From Macrostomum lignano (taxonomy: Eukaryota), in contig NIVC01005220.1 of the NCBI GenBank assembly GCA_002269645.1, forward strand, positions 1 to 20,733: a DNA stretch of 20,733 nucleotides, read 5' to 3'. Shown here in pieces: positions 1,479 to 20,733 of this stretch (position 1 is its first letter; each line of letters starts with the position of its first letter). Below the pieces are notes generated by a model that searched no databases, had not been told where the DNA came from, and saw nothing but the letters and a program-made list of their open reading frames with translations. The position numbers and the translations under genes are program-made.

Positions 1479-1966
1479 ACTCTGGCCCGAAGTCATGCGC
1501 TAAGTTGTCAATCTAGCCCTTGACGGCTTGAAGTAAAAATTTTGCCGACGTCTAAGTTAATGAACAAACAAACTGAAACAAGCAAGGATCTATAATGACA
1601 CTTACCTTCTGCGTTGACTCGAAAATAGACGCCTAAGTAGAAAGTGTAGAAAAAGTGAGAGTTGAATTAGAAAATTAGAAAGAAGTAAGAAAATTATTTA
1701 GTAAGAGAGCGTAGGAAGGAAACTGAGTTTCAGTTGCAAGTGTTTAGAGTTTAGACTGGAGACTGCAGACTGCAGAGTTAGAGTTCGACGAGCTTTCCAA
1801 CCGGTTCAAATCGGTTTATACTGGACAGATTGCTTTGTCTGCTTTCTGGGAATTTTCCACTCCCCATTTTCCATTACTGTTGTTTACGGAAAGTGGGGGA
1901 AAGAAACTCCGTGCACTTAGAGGACAAGTGAGTTCGCATCTCCTCATCCAATGGCAGCTCGCTATT

Positions 1967-4914
1967 CTCTTCGGTGGCAGAGGAATAGAATAGAATAGAA
2001 TAGAATAGAATAGAATAGAATAGAATAGAATAGAATAGAATACAATAGAATAGAATAGAATAGAATAGAATAGAATAGAATAGAATAGAATAGAATAGAA
2101 TAGAATAGAATACAATAGAATAGAATAGAATAGAATAGAATAGAATAGAATAGAATAGAATAGAATAGAATACAATAGAATAGAATAGAATAGAATAGAA
2201 TAGAATAGAATAGAATAGAATAGAATAGAATAGAATAGAATAGAATAGAATAGAATAGAATACAATAGAATAGAATATTCTTGGATACTGCACTGTCTAA
2301 GAAGAATTATTTATTCTTTTTTCTCTTTAGACTGTTATTTTTGGCTGCTAAGAAATTATTTTACCTCGCGTACTTCAGCCGCACTACTAAGTAGTGCAAA
2401 AAGGATATGAAAGGTAGAATCGTGTTTTATGCGCATAGCGAATGACTTTGCGACTGTCAATACACATTACTGGACTGGTCACCAGAGGAAATGTGCTATA
2501 GCAAATTATCTATGCAACAAACATACTGCGCGAGAACACACTGCCCTTCCATGGGGGCGCTGTATTTGGGAGTGCTGTCTTTGGGTGGCGCTTGATCTCG
2601 CCACACTGATTTTGGGCGAGATTCTTACCAGCCCTCTGAGATCCGCCCTCTCTCCCCGGATTCACCCAGCAGCGCAAGCCGGTGGTGGGCAGCAGGAGGC
2701 CATCGGGCTGCAGAGGCCCCAAACCGGAGCCCCACAGAAGCTGCTGCTCTTCGGTGGCAGAGGAATAGAATAGAATAGAATAGAATAGAATAGAATAGAA
2801 TAGAATAGAATAGAATAGAATAGAATAGAATAGAATAGAATACAATAGAATAGAATATTCTTGGATACTGCACTGTCTAAGAAGAATTATTTATTCTTTT
2901 TTCTCTTTAGACTGTTATTTTTGGCTGCTAAGAAATTATTTTACCTCGCGTACTTCAGCCGCACTACTAAGTAGTGCAAAAAGGATATGAAAGGTAGAAT
3001 CGTGTTTTATGCGCATAGCGAATGACTTTGCGACTGTCAATACACATTACTGGACTGGTCACCAGAGGAAATGTGCTATAGCAAATTATCTATGCAACAA
3101 ACATACTGCGCGAGAACACACTGCCCTTCCATGGGGGCGCTGTATTTGGGAGTGCTGTCTTTGGGTGGCGCTTGATCTCGCCACACTGATTTTGGGCGAG
3201 ATTCTTACCAGCCCTCTGAGATCCGCCCTCTCTCCCCGGATCACCCAGCAGCGCAAGCCGGTGGTGGGCAGCAGGAGGCCATCGGGCTGCAGAGGCCCCA
3301 AACCGGAGCCCCACAGAAGCTGCTGCTCTTCGGTGGCAGAGGAATAGAATAGAATAGAATAGAATAGAATAGAATAGAATAGAATAGAATAGAATAGAAT
3401 AGAATAGAATAGAATACAATAGAATAGAATATTCTTGGATACTGCACTGTCTAAGAAGAATTATTTATTCTTTTTTCTCTTTAGACTGTTATTTTTGGCT
3501 GCTAAGAAATTATTTTACCTCGCGTACTTCAGCCGCACTACTAAGTAGTGCAAAAAGGATATGAAAGGTAGAATCGTGTTTTATGCGCATAGCGAATGAC
3601 TTTGCGACTGTCAATACACATTACTGGACTGGTCACCAGAGGAAATGTGCTATAGCAAATTATCTATGCAACAAACATACTGCGCGAGAACACACTGCCC
3701 TTCCATGGGGGCGCTGTATTTGGGAGTGCTGTCTTTGGGTGGCGCTTGATCTCGCCACACTGATTTTGGGCGAGATTCTTACCAGCCCTCTGAGATCCGC
3801 CCTCTCTCCCCGGATTCACCCAGCAGCGCAAGCCGGTGGTGGGCAGCAGGAGGCCATCGGGCTGCAGAGGCCCCAAACCGGAGCCCCACAGAAGCTGCTG
3901 CTCTTCGGTGGCAGAGGAATAGAATAGAATAGAATAGAATAGAATAGAATAGAATAGAATAGAATAGAATAGAATAGAATAGAATACAATAGAATAGAAT
4001 ATTCTTGGATACTGCACTGTCTAAGAAGAATTATTTATTCTTTTTTCTCTTTAGACTGTTATTTTTGGCTGCTAAGAAATTATTTTACCTCGCGTACTTC
4101 AGCCGCACTACTAAGTAGTGCAAAAAGGATATGAAAGGTAGAATCGTGTTTTATGCGCATAGCGAATGACTTTGCGACTGTCAATACACATTACTGGACT
4201 GGTCACCAGAGGAAATGTGCTATAGCAAATTATCTATGCAACAAACATACTGCGCGAGAACACACTGCCCTTCCATGGGGGCGCTGTATTTGGGAGTGCT
4301 GTCTTTGGGTGGCGCTTGATCTCGCCACACTGATTTTGGGCGAGATTCTTACCAGCCCTCTGAGATCCGCCCTCTCTCCCCGGACTCACCCAGCAGCGCA
4401 AGCCGGTGGTGGGCAGCAGGAGGCCATCGGGCTGCAGAGGCCCCAAACCGGAGCCCCACAGAAGCTGCTGCTCTTCGGTGGCAGAGGAATAGAATAGAAT
4501 AGAATAGAATAGAATAGAATAGAATAGAATAGAATAGAATAGAATAGAATAGAATAGAATAGAATACAATAGAATAGAATATTCTTGGATACTGCACTGT
4601 CTAAGAAGAATTATTTATTCTTTTTTCTCTTTAGACTGTTATTTTTGGCTGCTAAGAAATTATTTTACCTCGCGTACTTCAGCCGCACTACTAAGTAGTG
4701 CAAAAAGGATATGAAAGGTAGAATCGTGTTTTATGCGCATAGCGAATGACTTTGCGACTGTCAATACACATTACTGGACTGGTCACCAGAGGAAATGTGC
4801 TATAGCAAATTATCTATGCAACAAACATACTGCGCGAGAACACACTGCCCTTCCATGGGGGCGCTGTATTTGGGAGTGCTGTCTTTGGGTGGCGCTTGAT
4901 CTCGCCACACTGAT
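1967..4914. repeat. Head-to-tail tandem array, 4 full units plus 1 partial (units start at 1967, 2747, 3326, 3901, 4471), each about 485 bp unique plus a (GAATA)n tract
   Basis: Units start CTCTTCGGTGGCAGAG and appear identical by eye except for microsatellite length and one site (CCGGA-TT/T/CT-CACC). The last unit stops at CCACACTGAT (4914). Confidence 0.97.
1983..2277 (+). repeat. (GAATA)59 microsatellite with CAATA interruptions
   Basis: 295 nt. Shorter copies lie at 2763-2857 (19 units), 3342-3431 (18), 3917-4001 (17) and 4487-4581 (19). Each has CAATA as the third-from-last unit. Confidence 0.98.
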
Positions 4915-6383: not shown

Positions 6384-7877
6384 TTAAATAATCGACGAAT
6401 TCAGCCGGAAATTCGGCTCCGAGTTCAGCTGCTGGTGACCAGACAGTGTGGCGTCGAATTCGCCCTCGTAATCTTCGTCATCGTTATCCACTTTGACATC
6501 AAGATCGAGGTCGTCCTCGGATTTCGGATCGGCGGAGGCCTGCAGGTTAGGGGTGGCGACCGAGTTTTTGAAAGGCCATTTGAGGACAGGGAGATGATGA
6601 TAAATGAGGTCATTCAAGGATGAGGAAATATATGCCATGAAAGGTCGATATTTAGGGACACGGACAGGGGTCATGTAGGACAAGACAAGGGGTTATTTAG
6701 GGACATGAGTATTGGTCATTTAAGGTCACAAACATCATGACGGTATCACATGTTTAGTTGCACGCATATAAAGTGGTGAGTCATACATTAACATGGGTTG
6801 ATAAAATTTCCCAGCTCACCGATCGATTATAGCCTAGCCGGGAGTCGGTCTCGCCGTCTCGACTATCGTCGTTGCCCCCAGCCAGCGATGCGGCTAAACA
6901 AGCGGCCACATCGAAGGCGGTTGTAGCGGCAGCAGCGTTAGCAGCAGTCCTACTACCCATAGTATTGCTGCCTAACACAGCAGCGCCGGTAGTATTCGCC
7001 AGTGGCAAATAAATTTTTCTAGCCACCACCGTCTGCTTCTGCTGCTGCTGCTGGCTGTCAGAGCCGGTCGCTCCCGATGCCGGGTATCGCCGACGGCCGG
7101 AACGGGCGCGCAGCTGCGGCTCCCCTGCACTCAGGCGTCTCTGCGCGAGAGATAAGAATAGGAAAGGGGTCAAATGAGGACAATAATTCTAAGCAGAGGT
7201 CATTTCAGGACAAAAATCAACCCTGGGGTCAGTTGAGGACAAAAGTCTACCCAGGGGTCATTTGAGGACAGAATCTATCTGGAGGTCATTTGAGGACAAA
7301 CTAATATACGTAAAGATCATTTGAGGGCAAACATCTACCGTGGGGTCATTGAAGACAGAGGTTATTTGGGGCAAAAAAAGTGCGCAGGGGTCAACTGTCC
7401 TTACCTGGCCAACAGTTGTGACGGCGGCGGCGGAGGCGGCGCACCACCCCGTCGGAACAAGGCGGCAGCGTCAGCGCCTTTGACAGTCGCCGATTGGCCC
7501 GCCTGGGTCGGCCGCCGAGATCGCCAAGACTGGGCGACATGGACGACGCCTGCTCCGTCGAAGACTGCTGCGGCAGAGTTGTTGTTAAAGAGTCGGTGGC
7601 CATCGACGCGGCAGCGGCGACGGCGGCTGCGGCCGTGGCGTCGAGTAGAGGCTGGTCCAAGACAACGGCTGCCGACAGCTGCTGGCGAGAGCAGACGGCT
7701 CGACTCGAAGGCTCTGCTGGCAGGCGCGGCAACAGCGGCGCCGAATGATGAAGCGCAGTTTAGCCGAACGATCGCGCTCCGCAAGGACCTGCAATTGCAG
7801 CTGCATGCGAAGATTGGTCAGGTCCATCTGGAGGTCGTCCACACGATGCAGGCGTTTCTCGTAGTGCTGCCGAATCT
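6384..7877 (-). pseudogene. 3' exons of a multi-exon gene (coiled-coil, Ala/Gln-rich low-complexity and acidic tail); first visible exon frame-disrupted
   Basis: Exons 7877-7405 (acceptor TTTCGCCCCCAG, donor GTAAGG), 7140-6820 (acceptor CTCTCGCGCAG, donor GTGAGC, phase 0/0, open) and 6539-6384 (acceptor CTAACCTGCAG, ASADPKSEDDLDLDVKVDNDDEDYEGEF...stop). The coiled-coil frame (IRQHYEKRLHRVDDLQMDLTNLRMQL) hits stops at 7587 and about 7471. No family recognised. Confidence 0.55.
7166..7392. repeat. Intronic 27-30 bp degenerate minisatellite with core GGGGTCA-NNN-GAGGACA
   Basis: Cores at about 7166, 7196, 7225, 7254, 7282, 7312 and 7342. The same family occurs at 6608-6730 and 7938-8096, i.e. 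in each intron or upstream flank of the 6384-7877 gene. Confidence 0.85.
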
Positions 7878-8231
7878 CTGGGGGCGAAAGAAATGACAAG
7901 AGACTGTTAGGCGGCAAACAAGGACACAGGACTTCTAGAGGTTAAAGGACACAAAAGGTCTCTTAGAGGTCGAATGAGAACACAGAACTATAAGGGTAAA
8001 ATGAGGACACAGGACTGTTAGGGGTCAAATGAGGACACGGGACTGTTGAGGGTCAATTGAGGACACGGAGCTGTTATGGGTCAAACTAGGACACGCGGGG
8101 ACTGTTGTTGTGATAAGTTTTTGCATCATGTAGCAAACAGACCATGGCACATTTGCACTAATGCACCATATCTAGACCAGCAGTATCTGAAATAGAAGCA
8201 AAAGCCATTTATAAGATAATATACATGTAGG

Positions 8232-8523
8232 TCAGTGAAGCAAATATCTAAAATTGTTAACAGAAGTATAAAAGAAAAATGAACAAGAAAAAATGGTGCT
8301 CAGTTAGCCGATTCTAAAAGTGAATCGTGGATCCCCTGAGCCACGAAGAGGCCGAACACCGTTCAGGGGGTTAATCCATAGTTCACTTTGCAGAGCAAAA
8401 CAAATTCCACAGCACAGTAAACAGTGCACAGCGGTCTTTTGCAGCATTGAACTAAGGATCAATCCCGCCACTAAGAGCGGGAAGCCACAGCAAGAAATGC
8501 AAAGCGGCCAGCTTTTTGAAAGC
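8232..8523 (-). repeat. 292-bp direct repeat, copy 1 (identical to 12212-12503), strongly structured
   Basis: Base-by-base comparison shows no difference at an offset of 3980. The copy begins 68 nt after the SET stop codon on the minus strand. Confidence 0.97.
8294..8512 (-). ncRNA. Candidate structured RNA or 3'UTR element, at least 7 consecutive hairpins ending GCACCA then T6
   Basis: Stems GCCGC/GTGGC, TCCCGCT/GGCGGGA, ATTGA/TCAAT, CCGC..GCAC/GTGC..GTGG, TTTGC/GCAAA, TGGAT..CCCCTGA/TCAGGGG..ATCCA and CGATTC/GAATCG. G-U pairs on the minus strand become A-C mismatches on the plus strand. I recognise no snRNA, 7SL or RNase P motifs. Confidence 0.45.
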
Positions 8524-8591
8524 CGATAAAATCTTATAGCGAACTCCCCATGCAACGGGGGCTGATGGTTTCAGAGAATAAACTTAGCCTT

Positions 8592-10553
8592 TCAGTCTTT
8601 AAGCCACGGATGCAGTCGAAGCACATCCGAGCGCCTTTCTCCATAATCGTAGAGTAGCTCCTCGCCTCGAGCAATGTCTCGAATGGCTTGGAAGACCAGA
8701 TGCGGTTTATTGTTTACATCAGCAACAATCGGCTTCAAGTTATTTCTTCGCCGGCTATGGTTAATGTACCGACCGACGTACTGGAAAGTGTTGGTTGCGT
8801 CGATGCAATAAGCTTGATCTCGCCAGGAAAAGAAAAACAAGAAGCAGCATGGCTTCCCTTGCTTTACAATATCTTCCTCCCGGGCGAGGCGTGCTTTTTG
8901 TCCTTGGATTAATTCTCCACCGTAAGTACAGACGACAGTGCCTTTTGGGAGGTCCGTACGGGCAAATGCCCCCAGACCCTCTGCGTCGACGCTACCGGCC
9001 TGAACCACGACGTTGCCGGTAGAAATCATTGTCTGTCGAACCACATCGGCCATAGTGAGTTGCCTCATAGACGCCATTTCGGTCGGCAGGGATCGCTCTG
9101 GACTCCCACGGCTAGCTCGGCCGTGAGGCGTCACGTGAAGGAGCGGCGTGCATGCTCCGTCCGGAGTTGTGATAGTGTCCGGGACTAGACGCTCGCGATT
9201 AGCTGCCATTGCAGGAGGGGCAACCGCAGCAGCGTGGCTATTTGAGTCCTCAGGCGAAGTCACAGTCGGCTCGAAAGGCGGATCATTGGACAGGCCATCT
9301 TTATTGGCTTCTCCTCTTTGGAGCCGAACGCTAAGGGGAACCTGACAGTGAAGAAAATGAAGAGGACAAATGATTCATAGTGGTAACGGCATACAAATGC
9401 AGATTAACCCCAACGCTTTAATCTTTGCATTGAATAAACATGCAACAAAATTGTTCCTAAGAACACTGTTTCACACAATAAACTGTGGACTTCATTTAGT
9501 TTGACCAACTTACTTCATTGGAGGTCGCCGGTACAGCGTCGGTAGATAAGGCGACGTCTATAGTTGCAGCAGCGGCAGACTCCGGGACCAGAAGCTCGCG
9601 ATTAGCTGCCATTGCAGGAGGGGCAACCGCAGCAGCGTGGCTATTTGAGTCCTCAGGCGAAGTCACAGTCGGCTCGAAAGGCGGATCATTGGACAGGCCA
9701 TCTTTATTGGCTTCTCCTCTTTGGAGCCGAACGCTAAGGGGAACCTGACAGTGAAGAAAAAAGTACATCATAATGGTTACAACATGCAATTAAAGATGAA
9801 CGTAACCCTTTGTTATTTTCATTAAACATACATGCAACCCAGCTGATGGTAAGATAATTGCTCTACACCATAAACCATGGGCCAGCATAAAAGACCCCAC
9901 CCCTTGTTGTTAATCCCTAATATTTCCTTTTGAGCAAAGTATCTAAAAGCTTTTATTTATTCATTTTTCACTTTCATCTTCTCAAATTTACCAAACATTC
10001 AACTTTTTAAGAAAAGTTGCGACCTGACCTGACCCGCGACCTGATGCTTTCAAGGTTACAGGCCGCAGCGTTTTAACAACAAAAAACCATGGACACAAAT
10101 TTTAGTTTAACACACCTCATTGGAGGTCGCCATTTCAGCGTCGGTAGCTAAGTCCGCGTCCATTGTTATAGCGGCGGCAGATTCCGGCAGGCTTTCAAGC
10201 GGCAAGGCTGGATTAAGATTTAGTTGAGGCCGGATGCCGTAAAAGGCCAACAACCGCAGGCCCTCAATTCTGTCATATGCCCTTGCCCTCGCATCAGCTA
10301 CGGCTGCACGGCCGACAACAAATGCTTCGCCGAAATGGCACAGCCGCATGTGTTGTCTCATATTAGAGGCGGCAAATGAGCTGCACAGCTGGCAAAGCTT
10401 TAAATCTCTTTTGCCATGCCAACGTTTGTAGAGAATGTAGGCTTCGACTCGATCGTAGTTTGCTGTATGCTTGCTTCGAGCGTGTCGAAGGAGGGTGGCG
10501 GACCGATTGGTGGAATAGTCACACATCGGGCAAATAAACTGGTCAGGGTCCAT
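8592..10553 (-). CDS. SETD8: Double C2H2 zinc finger plus PR-Set7/SETD8(KMT5A)-like histone H4K20 methyltransferase, 3 exons, about 472 aa
   Basis: Exons 10553(ATG)-10116, 9744-9514 and 9341-8592; GT-AG introns, both phase 0; 1419 nt in one open frame. SET motifs GLGAFA, VVCTYGGEL, YCIDAT, GRYINHS, GEELLYDYG and the SET8-diagnostic C-terminal HPWLK are present. N-terminal fingers are CPMC..HARSKH and CQLC..HMRLCH. The symbol is family-level, not an orthology claim. The frame is open upstream to an acceptor at 10631, so the start may be further 5'. Confidence 0.9.
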
Positions 10554-10819
10554 ATTGAATTGATTCAAGTTTTCAACGTAAACGTTTAGAGTAAAATTTA
10601 GTTCTCGATAAAACGTGTCGCGCAAACTTTCTGAAAATGAGGAAAAATCAAAATGAAACCTTTAACTACGGTGAAAGATGAATGAACTAGGCATCTTGGT
10701 AATAGGTACTTTACAATGCACTCTTAAAGACTGTCAGACTGAAAGCAAAGAAGGCATGTTCCGCTCGCTCGTAGTCTCAGGACAATAATAAAAGGCAGCT
10801 GAACAGATCAAATCAAATG

Positions 10820-10825
10820 TTTATT
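10820..10825 (-). terminator. Polyadenylation signal AATAAA of the zinc-finger gene
   Basis: AATAAA on the minus strand about 90 nt after the TAA at 10916, followed by T/G-rich sequence. Confidence 0.55.
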
Positions 10826-10915: not shown

Positions 10916-11533
10916 TTAAAGCAAATCGAGTAGTGAAACGGAATTCGAAATTGTAGGATTTGCATTTTGTTGCAACGAAACGCTGGGAGAAGCTGGATTA
11001 AAAAAGCCATTGAAATCATTGTCTAACGTAGTTACACTACAACTGTGGCAGGGGCATGTACAATGGCTATCAGGGCAATTGAAAATGTTTGAACGTAAAA
11101 CACTTGGACCGGAGAGCTGTGAATCGGCACACTTTTCGGAGGGGTTCCTGGCGGCTAGTGATTGCAGCTTAGAAATTAAAACTTCAGCGTTTTCTTTAGC
11201 CTCGTCTAAGTTATAGGTAGATTGCGAATTTCCATTTGTCTTAGATTGCTTTCCATGTTTTACCCTAACATGGCTTGGTAAATTCGAAGTGATAACACTG
11301 CAAACAGGACACTGATAGAGGTAACCCGATTCGGTTCGCTTCTTTGCCTTTAAAAGTCCAAAAAGGCGGATTGTGGCATCAATTTGCTCTTCAGTGGCAT
11401 CAGGGTGCTTTCGATTGCAATGTACCTTGAAACCAGATGCGCGTCCTGTCCAAGCATTGCAGATCAAACAGGAAATCTGCGTATGAACCTGCACCATGTG
11501 AGACATTGTCCCGCGGGTGACATTCAAGAGCAT
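10916..11533 (-). CDS. Stand-alone double C2H2 zinc-finger protein with Cys/His-rich C-terminal patch (205 aa ORF)
   Basis: CLICNAWTGRASGFKVHCNRKH and CPVCSVITSNLPSHVRVKH, then CPDSHCTCPCHSC. It has its own stop and a downstream AATAAA. The start codon is uncertain (ATG at 11533 or a downstream Met). Confidence 0.8.
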   Translation of the reverse strand: MLLNVTRGTMSHMVQVHTQISCLICNAWTGRASGFKVHCNRKHPDATEEQIDATIRLFGLLKAKKRTESGYLYQCPVCSVITSNLPSHVRVKHGKQSKTNGNSQSTYNLDEAKENAEVLISKLQSLAARNPSEKCADSQLSGPSVLRSNIFNCPDSHCTCPCHSCSVTTLDNDFNGFFNPASPSVSLQQNANPTISNSVSLLDLL

Positions 11534-12211
11534 CGGGAAAACGTTGTGGGCTTATTATTATACTGCTTCCAGGGAGGTTAGGCAAATTAAGTCTTAATTT
11601 TTGTATTCTAAGACAATGACGGAGAGGAAATGCTTTAGAGTATAAAAAATTCTGAATCTCACATCTGAATCTCCTATCCTCTGATCGGAACCAGGTCTAT
11701 CTTCCAACATGAACATCCTTTCCTCTCAACTGAAACCCTCGAGTCCGAGTCAATAAGGCTACAGGCCAAGCAGGGTGCCATTAGTTAGTGTGGGCAGTTA
11801 CATTTTCAATCTCCCCAGCCAAGCCTAAAGTGCTGCTATAAATGGGATAATGAGTGCATGGCGGGATGGGTCACTGCTATTGCTTATGGTTAACACGTAA
11901 CAAAAGTAAAAGACAAAAATGTGTATATCACGATTACTAGTTCCACTTTTATTATACTTTCGCGCTATCTTTGAAGCAGTATGCAAATATACTATTGGCA
12001 TAGCGGGCGTCTAAACGCAGGCTAACATAAGAGAACTGACAAATTGCAGTGAGTGTCAAAGTGTAGTACAACGAAAAGGGACAAAAGTAAGACGCATATG
12101 CGCCTCTCGCTGCAACGACAGGCGACTGCATATAAATGCATGAAATATTAAGTAATACAAACGAGAGAATAAAACACATTCAAGAAAGTTGCTCGTAGTT
12201 ATAAATTTCAA

Positions 12212-12503
12212 TCAGTGAAGCAAATATCTAAAATTGTTAACAGAAGTATAAAAGAAAAATGAACAAGAAAAAATGGTGCTCAGTTAGCCGATTCTAAAAG
12301 TGAATCGTGGATCCCCTGAGCCACGAAGAGGCCGAACACCGTTCAGGGGGTTAATCCATAGTTCACTTTGCAGAGCAAAACAAATTCCACAGCACAGTAA
12401 ACAGTGCACAGCGGTCTTTTGCAGCATTGAACTAAGGATCAATCCCGCCACTAAGAGCGGGAAGCCACAGCAAGAAATGCAAAGCGGCCAGCTTTTTGAA
12501 AGC
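12212..12503 (-). repeat. 292-bp direct repeat, copy 2 (structured core 12274-12492)
   Basis: Identical to 8232-8523. Begins 163 nt after the transposase stop. Confidence 0.97.
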
Positions 12504-12666
12504 TGAAATACTGCTTACTTTGGTAGGCTGTAAACTTTACAGTAAATTTCTAAGAGAAATCGGTATACGTTTATAAACTGGTTTAGAATTTCATGTAAAC
12601 AAGCTAGTTTACATCCGAAATATGATTATCCTATGGATAACAGTTTCAAGTAATCGAGTTTCGGAA

Positions 12667-15457
12667 TTAAATACTATCAATCCATTCTTCATCTGACTCA
12701 GACTGCTCACGACTTGATTCAACGTCTGAATGACTCGGGGCTTCAACGTCATCTGGCTGATTTACGTTGGTACCAGCGTCGTTTGGATGCTGCGCATCAG
12801 CAGCAGCAGCTTCAATGCTTGCGTCAATGTGATCAAAGCGAAGAGCTTGAAGTTGCTTTAAAATAGTCTGAAAGAGGCATCGAAACTGGGCTGGCAATCC
12901 AGGTTGATGATGGAGTGTTTCACAGTGCTGTTCAAGTTTAATTTGAACGTCACGCCACTCTTGCACAATAATGATCTTTTCCTCCGCTAGACGATTCAGC
13001 TTGTGATACAAGTCAACCACCCGTCGCTTGAACCTCTCAGACACATCGATCGAAAGACCGAAGTAGAAGTCTGACTGGAAGTCGCGAAGCTGAATCATAG
13101 TGGGCACGCGAAGGCCTGGCGGAAGCGAGCGGGCGGCCATTCGAATGTCTGCATTTAAAGCCGCAACCTTGCGTAGACATGCTCGATTTTCTTTTTGTCC
13201 ATCTGAGCAGCCACTCTGACGGATCCAATAGAATCGTTCCAAAGCAAGTGCCTTAAGCTTTGCGTAAGGTTCCCTGCTCAATGGAGAGTCGCTATTGGGA
13301 TTTATGGCTTCTGCATGCCATTGTTGAGCAAGATTTAAAATGGCTACCTCAGAGATTCCGGCAGGAATAGTTAATTTGTTGTTCCGCATCAAATCGCCAG
13401 CTTGTAGAAGCAATTGCTCCATTTCAGCTGAACAAGACGCGGCTGTGCGAGTTATTAGTTTTAATCGAGCAGAAAACCAATTGGAGGCGTACAACAACTG
13501 ATTAGCATTGAAGCAATGCAAAATGTAAGACATACAAGCACTTCTGCGATCGGACCGCATGTACTTTAAGCTTTTACCAAACGGTCGTAGTGCAGACCAA
13601 GCGCGCTCCGTATTCTCCCCGTCGCAAAGACCCGCTCCAGGAGTTACCCGCACGGAGTACTTTAGTTGGCATTGTCTCTCGTGGCCCAGCACATGAAAGG
13701 CGTTCACAGCGCACGTGACACTGTTAAGCTGTACACCAGATGCTGACACCATGGACTTGACACGATTGGAAATGCGACAACCTGATTTTAGGAAAAAGTT
13801 TTTAAATGAATAAATAATTGAGCTTCGTGTCGCAGTACGCATGCACGTACATAAGTAAGCACAAGCATAAGTAAGCACACACTATAAGTGTATAGTGTAA
13901 ATAAGTGCAGCATGATAGAAACACGATAAAAATCAACTCACCAACATCATAGATAAAAATGAGATCCTTTGAGACGGGCTGTGTCATTAGGTAATGACGA
14001 AGAGTCTGTTCTGGATAGCACAGGCCCTCACCAGCTGTAATAATGTTGCAACCTGTCAGAAGCCTGTTATGCCGGCAAAATAAGCCAAAGAAACCGTTGA
14101 CATCGTGCTTGCTGGCCCTGATCACGGGTTTTTCTGTTCCAGCCTTCCAGTTAGTGCAGCCTTCTGCAGACACTTGTGTCGTAGGAGGCGGTACAGTTGC
14201 TGGTTCTACATGAATAAGCGGTGACGGCAATGAGCGTTCAGAATCTGGCACTAGACGTTGCTTCGAACCCATACTTTGTAGTCTTCGCCATCCAAATAGA
14301 GCATCAGCACAAACTACAGACTTCCGACTTGAATTTTGGTCAGGACACAAAAGACAACTAGCAGGCCAGCTTGCTGAACACCTCTGCAACTCTCGAAACC
14401 GCAGTAGGACTCCATTACGCTGCAATCTCTGATACACTCGATCGGCTAAACCAGGGTTCCAGCGACCTTGTCCTACGACGGAGCCTTTGAAAAGACAGGT
14501 AATTGCACGAGACAGTGGCAGTTGACCGTCAAAGCACAAGGAGTCAAGAGTTGATAGAAAGCTAATTGAAAAAAATGTTAACAATTCGCCAACGCGTGAC
14601 TCGCTTCCAGGAAAGTATCCTTTTGCTAGCATGGCATCAACTTTATCACAGGATTGGCACGTATAAATTCTGGCGCAAACAATTCCGTTGATGTCAATAA
14701 TCTGAATTTCGGATGATGTTGTATACTCAGAAGACAAGCTTGATTCGCTACAGCAGAATAGAGAGACAGGCTCTTCTTCTTGAATGTCTTCAAACATTAG
14801 CGATTGAGCCTAGGAAAAAGGGTTAAATTTTGTATGCGGTGTTATAAAAATATTATTCCGTACTAAGGCTATTAGCATTCTAAATACTTTTGTTTCACGT
14901 CAAATTTAATACAGCGTTATACTGCCAAATAGGCGTCATTGTTTTCTTCACAGTAAACTAATATCCTTAGAAATTGCAATTTAGATTTTAAAACAACTTA
15001 CATTCCACTGGAGGAACTTGTGAGCAGCAAAATTTCCATGCGTTATCTTTTTACAATCACTGCAGACATCGTACTGACAATGAACACATCGGAAAACTCC
15101 AGGCTGCATGTCGCAACGAACACAGCATTTTAACTCGAATGACTGTTTATAACCGGCAGTGTAACTTTCCACAATGGCCGTGTAGTCTTCCCATTCCGTG
15201 AATTTAGGCGGCTGTTCAAACTTATTACTAATCTGTTCAGGCATAGAGTCATGGTTTCCTGCACCCAGATCTTGTGAAAGACTGCCGCCAGTGACTGTGG
15301 AACACGAGGAAGCCGTGGCAATCGATGTAGTACTTTCCAATGCATTAGGCGCATTAGACGTTCGCAATATCCTTGGCCTTCCGCGTTGGCCAGTCATCAG
15401 TACTACTTCAGATTGTCTTTTTCTCGATTTCGCATTTAGTTTTCTTGACGAAATCAT
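12667..15457 (-). CDS. KDZ (Kyakuja-Dileera-Zisupton) family transposase with N-terminal CxC-type cysteine cluster, 3 exons, about 812 aa
   Basis: Exons 15457-15002 (donor GTAAGT), 14809-13942 (acceptor TTTTTCCTAG, donor GTGAGT) and 13781-12667 (acceptor AAATCAG); 2439 nt in frame. KDZ motifs VCADALF, GFFGLFCRH, IYDVGC (formed by splicing), NAFHVLGHERQC and GAGLCDGENTERAWS are present. The cysteine cluster reads CVRC..FRCVHC..CSDC..H..H..W and CQSC..GYFP. Confidence 0.92.
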
Positions 15458-16793
15458 TGCTGAAATTCGTGAGGATCATTCTGAATTGTATATTACATCA
15501 TATGCTAAGCTCAAAAGGTGTTTATCTATATCAGTGTCTTTTTAGAGCAGGTGCTTAGCCATCTGCTCAGCCACCTGCAAGGCAACCTGCTCAGGCATTG
15601 CAGCTCAGGCAGTGGCTGGCTTGGAGCATCAGCTGATTTGATTAAAGTTGATTAAAATCTAGCAGATTTATAGTCTATAATTTGTTATCCATAGCCATAT
15701 TGCATTGAGTTGTGTTTATAAGTATATAATAAGCAGCTTAAATTATTATTTGGTGTAATTGGGATGCTTTGGAATATGTTTTCTAAATTTTCCACTTCAT
15801 CTTGTATTCTTGATTGTTGTATTTTCTTACAAGTCTTTTCTGGGTCCTTATGTCTATGAAAAAGGGTAGGCCTACCTGCATATAGTGGCTCTTTGATTTT
15901 AATTTATAAATTTTAGATGTATACATTTTTTGTTTTAATAGTTGCAGTTTAATGAGCCACAACACAAATGCCCACAAAGTTTTTATCAGTTTTATTTTAT
16001 TTGGAATATTCCAATAAATTATAATATATAAATATATATTATTTATCCTAACAAAAAGAATTCTATATGAATATTATATTTACATATTTATAGTCACAGA
16101 ATCATGCACTGAAAAAGTTCTTCTTAGGCTTGATAACAATATAGAAACATATAGAAACTAATAGATAAAAGTCTTAAATAACATTTATCATTTTTGATAT
16201 TCTGTTTTTTAATTTGACTAAGAACATCTAAAGAAATCATACTTTTTTATTAGAATATTTAAACTTATTTAAAGGCAACAAAGGTACAAAAGAATAGGCA
16301 GCCTTATGGTCATAACATTATGGTTTTAACTTTTTTCTGTCAATTCACTAACTTTGAATTACCAATAGATTAAAAATTTAATAGATTATATGGCCATTAA
16401 TGTTTATATCTAATTATGCAAATACTATAATTTTATCTATAGTTTGTTTCAATCTTCCAAAGCTTTTTATTTGTTTTCAAAAGGTACACAAAGTTAATGA
16501 TGTCTTTTGCTTAAAAAAATGTTCAATTTTTTATAAAAATAGCTTTTTGCCAACTGATATTATACTAATCCAACATTTTACCATTCATTTTTGGCATTTG
16601 TTATTTGTCCAATGACTGGACAAATAGCCTTTTTGCTATTTGTCTGCTTAAATTGCTAACACAAGTATCTGTTTGTTTTATGATGAATATTCTAAATTTT
16701 TAAGACCTTTTCTTGTATATTAATTAATATTTTCTTATATACTGTTAGCAAAGCAATGTATTCAATTTGGCATAATTTTGTATATAAGACACA

Positions 16794-16955
16794 CTAGTTC
16801 CCAGTGAGCTCCGCGAAACCCACAAACCCAAGGACACGCGCGAAGCGCGTGTCCTTGGGTTTGTGGGGTGAGCGGAGCGAACGCGCGAGGCACAAAGTGC
16901 CGAGCATGAGGAACAAACAGCCAGCCAATGCGCGAAGCGCATTGGGTGGTCTGGC
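16794..16955 (-). mobile_element. Helitron-type 3' terminus (non-autonomous); 5' end not determined
   Basis: A perfect 23-bp stem 16819-16841/16845-16867 is extended by GCTCCGC/GCGGAGC (16808-16878). On the minus strand it is followed after 10 nt by CTAG and then T (16797-16793), matching the canonical hairpin-CTRR|T signature. Confidence 0.65.
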
Positions 16956-19135
16956 TTGTGACGAATATAATAATATGAGACGTGTGCATCGAAAAAATGA
17001 CAAGAAAAATCTCACAAAAACTGCTGTAACTTCAAAACTACAAGTGCGAATTTCACAAGTGAGGTGTCATTTTAAAGAGAAGAATCTGATCTATTTAACG
17101 AGTATAGTTTTGTATGGATTCACTGCGGAGAAAAGGAACAGGCTTCAGTTGAAATGTTTGTCTTAAGATTATGTCTTTACAAAAGTGCATTTCCTCATGC
17201 ACATTAAAACTCGAGCTAAAAATGTTCGAGGGTTATAGGTGCGCCTTACTAAGATGCATAACATTATTGGGTTGTTTTTTTCAATTGTATCAAAAAGTTG
17301 GCACTTTGGTTGCAAAAAATGCAAAAATTGAAAATGTACTTTTACAGTTTTTTGCATTTTTTTCTATACTGCTAATAGTTAAGCATACATACTATGCACC
17401 AATTGATGCGCAATTCAAAGATACACAAGTGTGGAAGTTTTCAATTCCTAAACATTTGAAATCAGAAAGTTATCGACGAAAGACTAAAAATCATGATCTC
17501 AAACTGATTTGAGGAAAAGTGCTCATTATAATTTTTGGAATATGGAAGAAACAATTCAACGCCGTCATCTAATTCCAAACTAACTGTACTTTAAGGTACT
17601 GCGATGATTTTTTTATTGAAAGAGCGAAACCTGTTTAAATATTTGAAAAAATGGAAAAAAAGTACCTTTTTTCATAGAAATACACTCTTTTGACTGCTTA
17701 ATCCGATTTCCAACAACAAAATAGTTGCTTTCCTGCTGGTGCAAACCGTTATTAGGGTGAATTTTCAAAATTGCATACTGTGCCAAAAGTAAACTGAAGC
17801 TTAATATTTATAAACATTAGAAACGGGACCACTAATGGGTATTTTACTTTGGTTACTTACTATGGACTAAACTGGCACTGGCAGAGACAGATTTGAGAGA
17901 AACTAATTGCTCCATTGTATTTGTATTTGGCTCCAGCGTTACAAATTACAATAGCTATTTCGGGGTCTAACCGGCTAAGTTATCAAAAAAGCTAGATACC
18001 AATCACCAGTTTCATCATCAGCTATACCTACCACGATTTTATAGTCACATGCAACAGTAATACCCTCCTTTAAAAGTTTTCAATATCTAAAATGATGTGT
18101 TAAATTTTATAAAATTTCATAAACAGTGAAATTTTAGCTGTTTACGTGCTGGTGGTTTGAACGTAGCTACTTTGTGCGAAAATACACTGTCATTAATACC
18201 GTACCTATTATTGTATTTATTGTATTGAAAGTTGATGTGTAAATTGTACTTTTCTATTTTTTTGTCATTCGTTATCGCACTCGGGCCGGCCTGCCTGCCT
18301 TGTGGGGTGTGGTGGCCTTGGCCACTTTCTCCCCCTTCTGCTAGGATCCAAAGCAAGCTTTCAAGTGTACATTTAATATTATCGATCGATTATTTAAAAC
18401 AAGCCTCTAGTGGCTGGTGTTGAGAGTGAGTGGCCTTGAGTGTACGCGAAAGCAAGAGGAAGCCCATGGGCGGACTATATGAACCTTCCTTTAGTGGAAA
18501 GTTGGGCCTTGTGCATTGGATAGTGTACGCTACACAAGACAGAAGGTAAAGAGAAAGAGAACGACAGGCTAGCCAATAGCGATAGCATGTGCTTCTTTCT
18601 CTCCAGTCCACTATGGTAGGGGGGGGGAGGGGGGTGTCATACGGCCCAACTCTAACCCCCATACCCAAAACAGCGTACATGTAGAATAAGAAGGGATTGG
18701 GTCCAGATAAGTCTTCCCAAATGTACATGTATGTACAAAGACAAACACAGACAAGAAAAATGGCTCTAAAAACCATTGTTATTGTTACACTGTGTGTCTA
18801 TTTTTATTAACTTGACTTTGACTTGTCTTTAGGCCCTACTCTAGCATGGTCAAGGATAATTACTGTTACTTCATACCTAATTTACAATTAATTGCATAAG
18901 ATTAAGAAGGAATAATACAATCGAGGTCGAACCCATGATCACTTGACCCACCCACCCATGATCACTTCTGATTCTGACCTACATGTATCTACTATATCCT
19001 GCCAGTTTCTCCAGTTTTATGGGTCTTGGTGTCGGTGATTCGAGCAATTCCATTACATTTTATCGGTGCAGTGCGTCTATTAATGCTTAGCTACTTGTAT
19101 ATGTGTTGCAGAACTTATGCTCGTAGTTTCCCTTC

Positions 19136-19914
19136 TAGGGATGTTGACCCCGGGAGTGCTCCCCGGGGAGCTTGTCGGGGAATACTCTCCGGGGAATTTA
19201 ACCGGGGACCCTGGGGAGAAAAAATATGAAAAAATGCATTTGTAACTTAATTTTTGCCATTAAAATAAGAAACTGATTCACAGAAAGCTGATTGAAACTC
19301 TGTCTATGCTCTTTTACCGCATAATTGCTTATTTCAATGCATTACATGTATTTGAAACACAACACACGTTTGATTGTTTTTTCACTAATAAGTCATTCAA
19401 TCAAGCAAATTGCACGTAGAAAAGAAACCCGTCAGGAAAAAGAAGCCTTACTGACTAGTGACTGCTGTGTTGGTCTGCGTTGACGGCTTGACGCAGGCGC
19501 AGCGCTGCGTCATGCGTCAGGCACTGACGCATAGGGGGTGTCATACATATACTCCCTATTAGACAAGGACAAAATGGTGATTTACATATATATGCAAGAA
19601 ATAAAATTCCGATTATAAAAACAGTCTCATTCATTAATTATCCTCTCACGAGCGTAGCTGTTTAGCATGCATTCCAACAAATGCACTTTTCCGATAAAGG
19701 TGCGCGCACGATTTCGTGATGCCACATTGTCAAATACAGTTTAAAAAAAACATTGTTTAAAATTTTTACCCCTGCGCCTTGAACATGTAGTACAAAGCTT
19801 AAATCAAAGTTTAAAAAATTCCACTTACAATCTAAGTGATCCGCCGTTTTAACTTATTTTTTCTTTTCACCGGGGTCCCCGATAAGATAATTCCCTGGGG
19901 AATCGACATCCCTA
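19136..19914. mobile_element. hAT-superfamily non-autonomous element (MITE-like, about 780 bp)
   Basis: TIR TAGGGATGTTGA (19136-19147) versus TAGGGATGTCGA (reverse complement of 19903-19914) is Ac-like (TAGGGATG). The 8-bp TSD TTCCCTTC lies at 19128-19135 and 19916-19923, with one extra A at 19915. Inverted CCGGGG(A/T) subterminal repeats occur at both ends. Confidence 0.85.
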
Positions 19915-20733
19915 ATTCCCTTCCTATAAATCATTTGACGTTAGAGACATTTTACAACTCTCGCCCTACTTTATCTATTAGGCTAACTTTATGTATGACA
20001 CGACGCAAAATATTAGGAGCATCAGCGTTAATAATGCCTTGAAAGTCTTTAAATAATCGATACAACACTAGGTATTATAAAATTCCAACCCGCAAAGCTC
20101 ACTGGGGCGAAAAGACTTTGTCTTCATTAACTAGTATAACAACATAATAAACTAATAATCAAGATACAAATAAGAAGTCTTTAAAGTCTAGGAATATTTA
20201 TCCTTGTAGTTTCTATGAAATAGATTTTTTAGCATTATTAATTTAATTGGACAAATGACAAAATGTCTATTTTGTCCAGTATTAACTAGATGAATAAGAA
20301 AGCATGGTCATAATCCAGTAACTGGACAAATGACAATTGCTTTATTTTTTAGATTGTATGCTAGTATAGGCCTTATATTATACATAAAGAACATTTGGCA
20401 GAAAAATTAGTAGCAAGGCAATGGTGAGCAAAATATTGACTTTTTACTATTTTCCAAATATGTCTATCTTATCTGGCTGGAATGAGCCACCTGACATAGG
20501 CCCTACTCACTATATATTCCACTCTTGACTCCAAGGTGCATATAGGAAAAAGATTATTTAAGTGTAAGGTGTGCGATGAAAAAATACAAAGTGGGACTGT
20601 AGCCTAAGAGCAATGCTGTTACCTAGCTATTTAAGAAGTAGTACTTCAACCAACCTGCTGTCTAGCAACAAATGAGATCTACTGTCACTGACATATGACA
20701 AGCATATCTAAGATGCTTAAATTTAAAAAAATT

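Follow-up and report, generated by a model that had tools for sequence, protein, structure and literature searches.

The transposon, its genes and the spliced leader

The window, the whole 20,733-nt stretch of DNA that was analysed, sits in the 764-Mb genome of an animal (G000) and carries a row of genes on the minus strand from 15.5 to about 6 kb: a B-box/CxC1/KDZ transposase gene, a zinc-finger-like gene, a C2H2-SET gene and a low-complexity gene. The CxC1-KDZ transposase gene (12667..15457, minus strand) has two GT-AG introns, an 812-aa open frame and a leader acceptor at 15460. The C2H2-SET gene (8592..10601, minus strand) is KMT5A/PR-Set7-like, the closest relative of its SET domain being KMT5A/SETD8, and has a 472-aa spliced frame with a leader acceptor at 10631. 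Both frames are intact when the GT-AG introns present in contigs of four public runs are removed. Between these two genes lies the zinc-finger-like gene (10916..11533, minus strand), which ends at an AATAAA (10825-10820) and is not followed by a ribozyme. The transposase scores 68 and 32.9 bits for KDZ, over the cut-off, with CxC1 under the cut-off, and the presence of CxC plus KDZ in one transposase identifies the element as a KDZ (Zisupton-type) transposon. One end of the element was placed by comparing flanks; the other end was sought and not found.

The cargo of this KDZ element includes an intact fusion of a KMT5A/PR-Set7-like (H4K20-type) SET domain with a C2H2 finger (window 8592-10601), and at least four further repeat families of G000 carry SET-type cargo genes related to it. 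The zinc-finger-SET gene has an internal exon duplication (9178-9357 and 9581-9760; introns 9342-9513 and 9745-10115), and exon skipping was seen in one run. The last gene of the row holds two degenerate 28-29-nt tandem arrays of one type (7180-7330 and 7908-8074), one inside a spliced intron and the other spanned by contigs without a joint. Elsewhere in the window, positions 16799-20129 are a 3.3-kb insertion, missing from most copies, with repeated ACTAGT on its flanks and short inverted ends, one end also bearing a 34-bp hairpin (16808-16878); we take it to resemble a Helentron-type non-autonomous element. A 575-580-nt tandem unit is present in five copies around a 10-nt microsatellite (1880-4914) and is common to the duplicated copies of the region, as is a CT-rich satellite (400-1480).

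An identical non-genomic leader is joined at 15460, 11533 (in all four runs), 10631 and 8187 in contigs of the four public runs, supposed to be RNA and known as assembled contigs, so that strand, ends and levels are unreadable. This leader is the 3′ part of the published Macrostomum lignano leader (PMC8629364, excerpts), which makes this flatworm, or a species close to it, the probable host. The presence of the leader at four sites makes it likely that the element is a trans-spliced operon. The junction 11533-10631 works on a plain AATAAA, without a ribozyme, and the gap from this signal at 10825 to the acceptor at 10631 is about 190 nt. The acceptor at 8187 (minus strand, with AG) belongs to the next cistron, lies 108 nt behind the predicted ribozyme described below and was found in one of the four runs among the matches listed.

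The repeat module and its predicted ribozyme fold

Behind the zinc-finger-SET gene lies a 295-nt repeat module (8232..8526, minus strand). A second copy (12212..12506, minus strand; ribozyme at 12349-12275) lies behind the KDZ gene, 3980 nt away and 99.7% identical, and the nearest leader site behind it is 742 nt off among the matches listed. A preliminary description of this DNA had given the element as 8294..8512 and had noted the second copy. The element is real and the copy is where it was placed, but the repeat is wider. The motif coordinates quoted there are also correct, as are the loop of 7 nt and the terminal ACCA-T6, and its broader proposal of an element structured at the RNA level, placed at the 3′ ends of genes and likely involved in processing, stands. 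Comparison with shuffled sequences gave -82.8 kcal/mol for the minus strand (z -4.92, none of 200 shuffles as good) and z -3.43 for the plus strand. The count of at least seven hairpins was too high, since 8294-8512, folded at minimum energy, shows six terminal loops.

The 5′ stem domain of the module (8370..8525, minus strand) consists of a long interrupted stem, closed by a 14-bp helix, together with three short hairpins. This 156-nt domain folds at -62.1 kcal/mol (z -6.09, 0/200 shuffles as good) and stops 1 nt short of the predicted cut. A pattern search revealed a bulged hairpin (8403..8427, minus strand) common to the modules of the window element, referred to as family 1, and those of family 2 (see below), located 33 and 23 nt, respectively, upstream of the cut sites. 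This pattern has 50 matches in G000 against none for the reversed control. Of these matches, 41 are modules of family 1 or 2; the remaining nine belong to two repeats, and the seven inspected have neither the fold nor a KDZ/SET gene. At its 3′ side the module ends with a U-rich tail (8232..8294, minus strand), the sequence of which is partly common to family 2.

In G000, the family-1 module has 21 matches: 18 near-identical copies on nine contigs, two diverged and one truncated. Most of these copies are duplicated segments rather than separate insertions, because six of the seven copies checked have one flank in common, and a reading of them as nine young insertions was dropped on the same ground. 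Of the non-family loci reached by a 12-mer search with the 3′ end of the module, 20 were inspected and all proved unrelated. Two further loci (L022, G000:C159:35990-37788, and L023) carry a 69-nt tandem array with 27 pattern matches, which is unrelated to the ribozyme.

The 3′ 75 nt of the module (8295..8369, minus strand) can be arranged as an HDV-like double pseudoknot, with a predicted cut at 8370/8369. On the minus strand, P1 has 7 bp (8369-8363/8339-8333), P2 has 8 bp (8360-8353/8302-8295), P3 has 3 bp (8352-8350/8342-8340) and P4 has 6 bp (8327-8322/8314-8309). L3 comprises 7 nt (8349-8343), and P1.1 is formed by U8347-A8332 plus C-U, that is, by one standard pair. The cytosine at 8307 is predicted to be catalytic from its place in J4/2 (8308-8303), and we take it to be the equivalent of C75 in HDV numbering. 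P1, P2, P3, P1.1 and P4 are nested in the correct order and the core bases are present, i.e., the catalytic C and A of J4/2 and the U and G of L3. The G at +1 of the viral consensus is absent from family 1, which has C1-G; families 2 and 3 have G1-U. However, G at +1 is not universal in the HDV-like class, as illustrated by the active Caenorhabditis briggsae ribozyme, which has C1 and a P1.1 of U-A/C-U and cleaves at 9.3 per min (PMC13635239, excerpts).

In the nested-fold ensemble, the helices formed by the P1 and P2 strands (8369-8363/8339-8333 and 8360-8353/8302-8295) split 0.39/0.60, which would be the behaviour of two pseudoknot halves. Rfam gave a divided answer: the whole window has no matches at E up to 1, and a 401-nt query has one weak match of note, RF02682 over 8369-8296, with 21 bits (E 0.1), below the gathering score of 44 bits. 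The family-1 copies are too little diverged for pair changes to prove the fold: across four sequences there are no two-sided changes, nine one-sided compatible changes and six broken pairs, five of which fall in a single copy (L020) that is likely decayed. A search of G000 with the core pattern returned 27 matches, 20 of them family 1 and the others unconvincing. The 7-bp register of P1 is fixed because two metagenome homologues (see below) keep the same six bases after P1, and a 6-bp register was set aside on this basis. We regard it as nearly certain that the 3′ 75 nt of the module has an HDV-like ribozyme fold, and cleavage at 8370/8369 with C8307 as the general acid is predicted with good probability.

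Related modules, LINE heads and poly(A) signals

A second family of KDZ elements in G000 has a transposase that is 48% identical to that of family 1, and each of its three genes is followed by a repeat particular to this family. BLAST detects no similarity between the family-2 and family-1 modules, and the two families are not alignable with MAFFT. The order within the family-2 module is that of family 1, with the bulged hairpin followed by the HDV-like fold and the U-rich tail, and the fold (three copies) has G1-U, a two-pair P1.1 and a long P4. The first two repeats take in the end of the KDZ coding sequence; the third follows the last recognisable gene, and no cistron was found in the 9 kb downstream of it. 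With Rfam, the family-2 module gives chance miRNA matches only.

Family 3 has the zinc-finger-SET gene in common with family 1 (49-65% in SET), and no KDZ gene was found near it. Its three copies, behind three genes, show a canonical HDV-like fold with G1-U and a 175-nt J1/2. The sequences of P1, P2, P3 and P4 differ among the three families in a comparison based on descriptors rather than on alignment, and the catalytic C and the U and G of L3 are retained in all three. Inside one element, the module copies are 95-99.7% identical. A strict descriptor matched only families 1 and 2 among 635 kb of redundant loci and gave no matches in 1.09 Mb of shuffled DNA. Families 2 and 3 were spotted by eye first and the descriptor was widened afterwards; in its widened form it matches the shuffled DNA (1.09 Mb) three times. 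No convincing fold is present at six other SET-bearing loci or at ten weaker KDZ loci.

Between the family-3 ribozyme and the 5′ end of a non-LTR retrotransposon (LINE), identity is 73-75%. All 22 LINE copies that were fetched, with 10 different flanks, start at G1 of P1, the predicted cut site, a pattern that would be expected of an active 5′-processing ribozyme. Family 3 kept the ribozyme part of the LINE only and, relative to the LINE, has one extra P2 pair, changed on both strands, and a closed seventh P1 pair. Across family 3 and the LINE the core is nearly invariant, and there are 10 two-sided compensatory pairs in the J1/2 domain. Judged by sequence, the family-3 ribozyme derives from the LINE head. 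In the non-LTR family in question (L284-L305 and L336-L338), the HDV-like ribozyme at the head is 250 nt long, and its 175-nt J1/2 is structured. Another abundant repeat (L042-L064, e.g., G000:C251:165044-165114) shows a canonical HDV-like core with two hairpins and (CAA)n tracts ahead of it; remnants of a non-LTR-like 3′ ORF lie close by.

Outside G000, the family-1 core pattern occurs in 79 metagenome stretches, among them two unrelated contigs with full folds in which P1, P2 and P4 differ from family 1. A family-1 covariance model recovers only these two metagenome cores and not families 2 or 3; three weak descriptor rows (L363, L365 and L385) were dropped, and a KDZ search of the metagenomes gave no relative. 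One of the two contigs with full folds (L367) has four HDV-like folds within 3 kb (358-436, 901-977, 1484-1562 and 2479-2556), lying between small phage- or plasmid-like ORFs.

The poly(A) context differs among the families. In the window, AATAAA is absent on the coding strand from either stop codon to the end of the repeat, as first described; the copies nearest to the modules are at 8711, inside the SET frame, and at 11953, downstream. The KDZ side of family 1 has a TATAAA (12575) 226 nt upstream of the cut, and the SET side has no poly(A) hexamer outside the frame. Family 3 has no hexamer upstream and an ATTAAA just behind the ribozyme. The earlier idea that the element replaces a poly(A) signal holds for part of these cases but not for family 2, where AATAAA/ATTAAA precedes each of the three ribozymes by about 100 nt.

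Possible roles of the module and comparison with known systems

With a ribozyme fold between a stop codon and the next acceptor, the nascent transcript would be cut behind the gene. The downstream piece would start with a 5′-OH and be capped by the pseudoknot, such that XRN2 could not attack it until the leader is added. We infer that transcription would continue and that the next cistron would be rescued for leader addition. The resistance to XRN2 is suggested by analogy with published HDV insertions, where cleavage leaves a 5′-OH downstream product that is not degraded and fails to sustain XRN2 termination (PMC6938672, excerpts). After the upstream 3′ cut in nematode operons, trans-splicing and elongation face competition from XRN2 (PMC5025045, excerpts). 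Taken together, these two observations suggest that the ribozyme would separate the cistrons and shield the downstream one. A cistron-separating cut that leaves an exonuclease-resistant downstream end is, as a model, the best reading of the module, and we give it a probability of about 0.5. Three observations go against shielding: a family-2 module lies behind the last gene, one junction is free of a ribozyme, and one contig reads through. This last contig, of X1, covers 7810-9220 without a break, and uncut RNA (or DNA) thus exists across 8370/8369. Among the matches listed, contigs on the SET side end at 8429 and 8434 in two runs, about 60 nt ahead of the predicted cut, and one KDZ contig ends at 12535, 40 nt behind the TATAAA; these stops, seen in the four runs alone, are not counted as evidence.

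The main rival is that an active ribozyme serves the upstream gene by releasing or shortening its mRNA, either through 3′ end formation resembling co-transcriptional cleavage or through removal of the poly(A) tail, i.e., self-attenuation of the transposon genes. This role does not exclude cistron separation, and the two may operate together. It fits the module after the last gene of family 2, the lack of a hexamer from stop to cut on the family-1 SET side and in family 3, the family-3 ATTAAA, which would place the ribozyme in the 3′ UTR, and the closing of the 5′ domain 1 nt ahead of the cut. A parallel exists in Leishmania, where hallmark elements of SIDER2 within 3′ UTRs promote endonucleolytic decay (PMC4035085, excerpts). 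We nevertheless find it somewhat unlikely, given the canonical signal upstream of every family-2 cut and the position of the family-1 leader acceptors after the module. Alternatively, the family-1 fold might be slow or inactive and act in the intercistronic RNA as a structural roadblock (xrRNA-like) or as a protein-binding element. Both the C at +1 and the one-pair P1.1 deviate from the viral consensus, the X1 contig reads through, and termination is impaired when an xrRNA follows a poly(A) site (PMC6938672, excerpts). However, the C. briggsae ribozyme, with a core of this type, is fast, the catalytic C and the L3 U and G persist in three families, and families 2 and 3 are canonical, which leaves a slow or inactive fold improbable.

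It is quite improbable that the modules are neutral passengers, LINE/SINE heads that were inserted and then copied by internal duplication or gene conversion. Such an origin agrees with the LINE derivation of family 3, the near identity of copies inside an element, the KDZ coding end contained in the first two family-2 repeats and the other abundant HDV-like repeats in the genome. What argues otherwise is that the modules are always on the sense strand and behind stop codons (eight positions in three families), that the LINE contributed nothing beyond its ribozyme, and that the fold persists between families 1 and 2 with its helices rewritten. The ACCA followed by T6, together with one B-box-like 9-mer in the 5′ domain, could also point to a tRNA-like substrate of RNase P/Z, a conformational switch or a Pol III RNA, in line with the armless-tRNA, mascRNA or viral TLS readings of the preliminary description. 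The 48-nt acceptor-like stem on which they were based can be drawn, but its pair probability is about 0.003. Strand 8302-8295 instead forms 8 bp with 8360-8353, compatible with 8369-8363/8339-8333 as a pseudoknot, and the alternative helices coexist rather than switch. ARAGORN finds no tRNA, the ACCA forms the end of a P2 strand and is not present in family 2, no family has an A box, and the T6 run is missing behind the family 2 and 3 copies. This group of readings is therefore highly improbable and already largely excluded.

HDV-like ribozymes are a known class, typically found at retrotransposon heads (PMC3774820 and PMC4035085, excerpts), and the function of cellular ones outside such heads is stated as open (PMC13635239, excerpts). 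The accessible parts of the open-access literature contain no report of HDV-like ribozymes in KDZ or other DNA transposons or in this host, and none of ribozymes as eukaryotic operon separators. We tentatively suggest that, at least twice independently, animal DNA transposons organised as trans-spliced operons captured retrotransposon-head ribozymes and amplified them for use as protein-free separators of cistrons, which would make 3′ ends and block torpedo termination. If so, this would represent a ribozyme-based route to eukaryotic operon processing in which the polymerase is kept going through the operon without SL2-type machinery, and it could provide a compact multi-gene expression tool for a trans-splicing animal. 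The placement of the module would give it a sharp role, where a single mutation at C8307 should uncouple the cistrons. In addition, family 3 would document the transfer of a ribozyme from a LINE to a DNA element.

Among known ribozymes, that of C. briggsae is alike in the double pseudoknot, the C at +1 and the P1.1 of U-A plus C-U; it is likened here by description rather than by sequence, and the excerpts give no function or transposon context for it (PMC13635239). Unlike it, the flatworm module has a 156-nt upstream domain. In the case of the Rfam family RF02682 (HDV-F-prausnitzii), L3, J1/4 and J4/2 align across the full model, and family 1 differs in having C1-G instead of G1 and in missing one G of J1/4. 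The heads of non-LTR elements such as R2 (PMC3774820, excerpts) and L1Tc/SIDER (PMC4035085, excerpts) belong to the same fold class, with a P1 of 6 or 7 bp. The flatworm modules, however, are internal and repeated behind genes rather than located at the element end, and their host is a DNA element, which needs no RNA intermediate. Nematode operons face the same problem, in that the 3′ cut of gene 1 must spare gene 2, and they also have a U-rich stretch (the Ur motif) ahead of the acceptor. They use protein together with SL2 snRNP recruitment, and the excerpts describe no ribozyme (PMC5025045 and PMC7668243). Kyakuja-Dileera-Zisupton transposons (Pfam PF18758 and PF18802) share the CxC1 and KDZ domains and accessory zinc-finger genes with the flatworm element, which differs from them in being leader-spliced and probably polycistronic and in carrying a KMT5A-like SET gene and predicted ribozyme modules.
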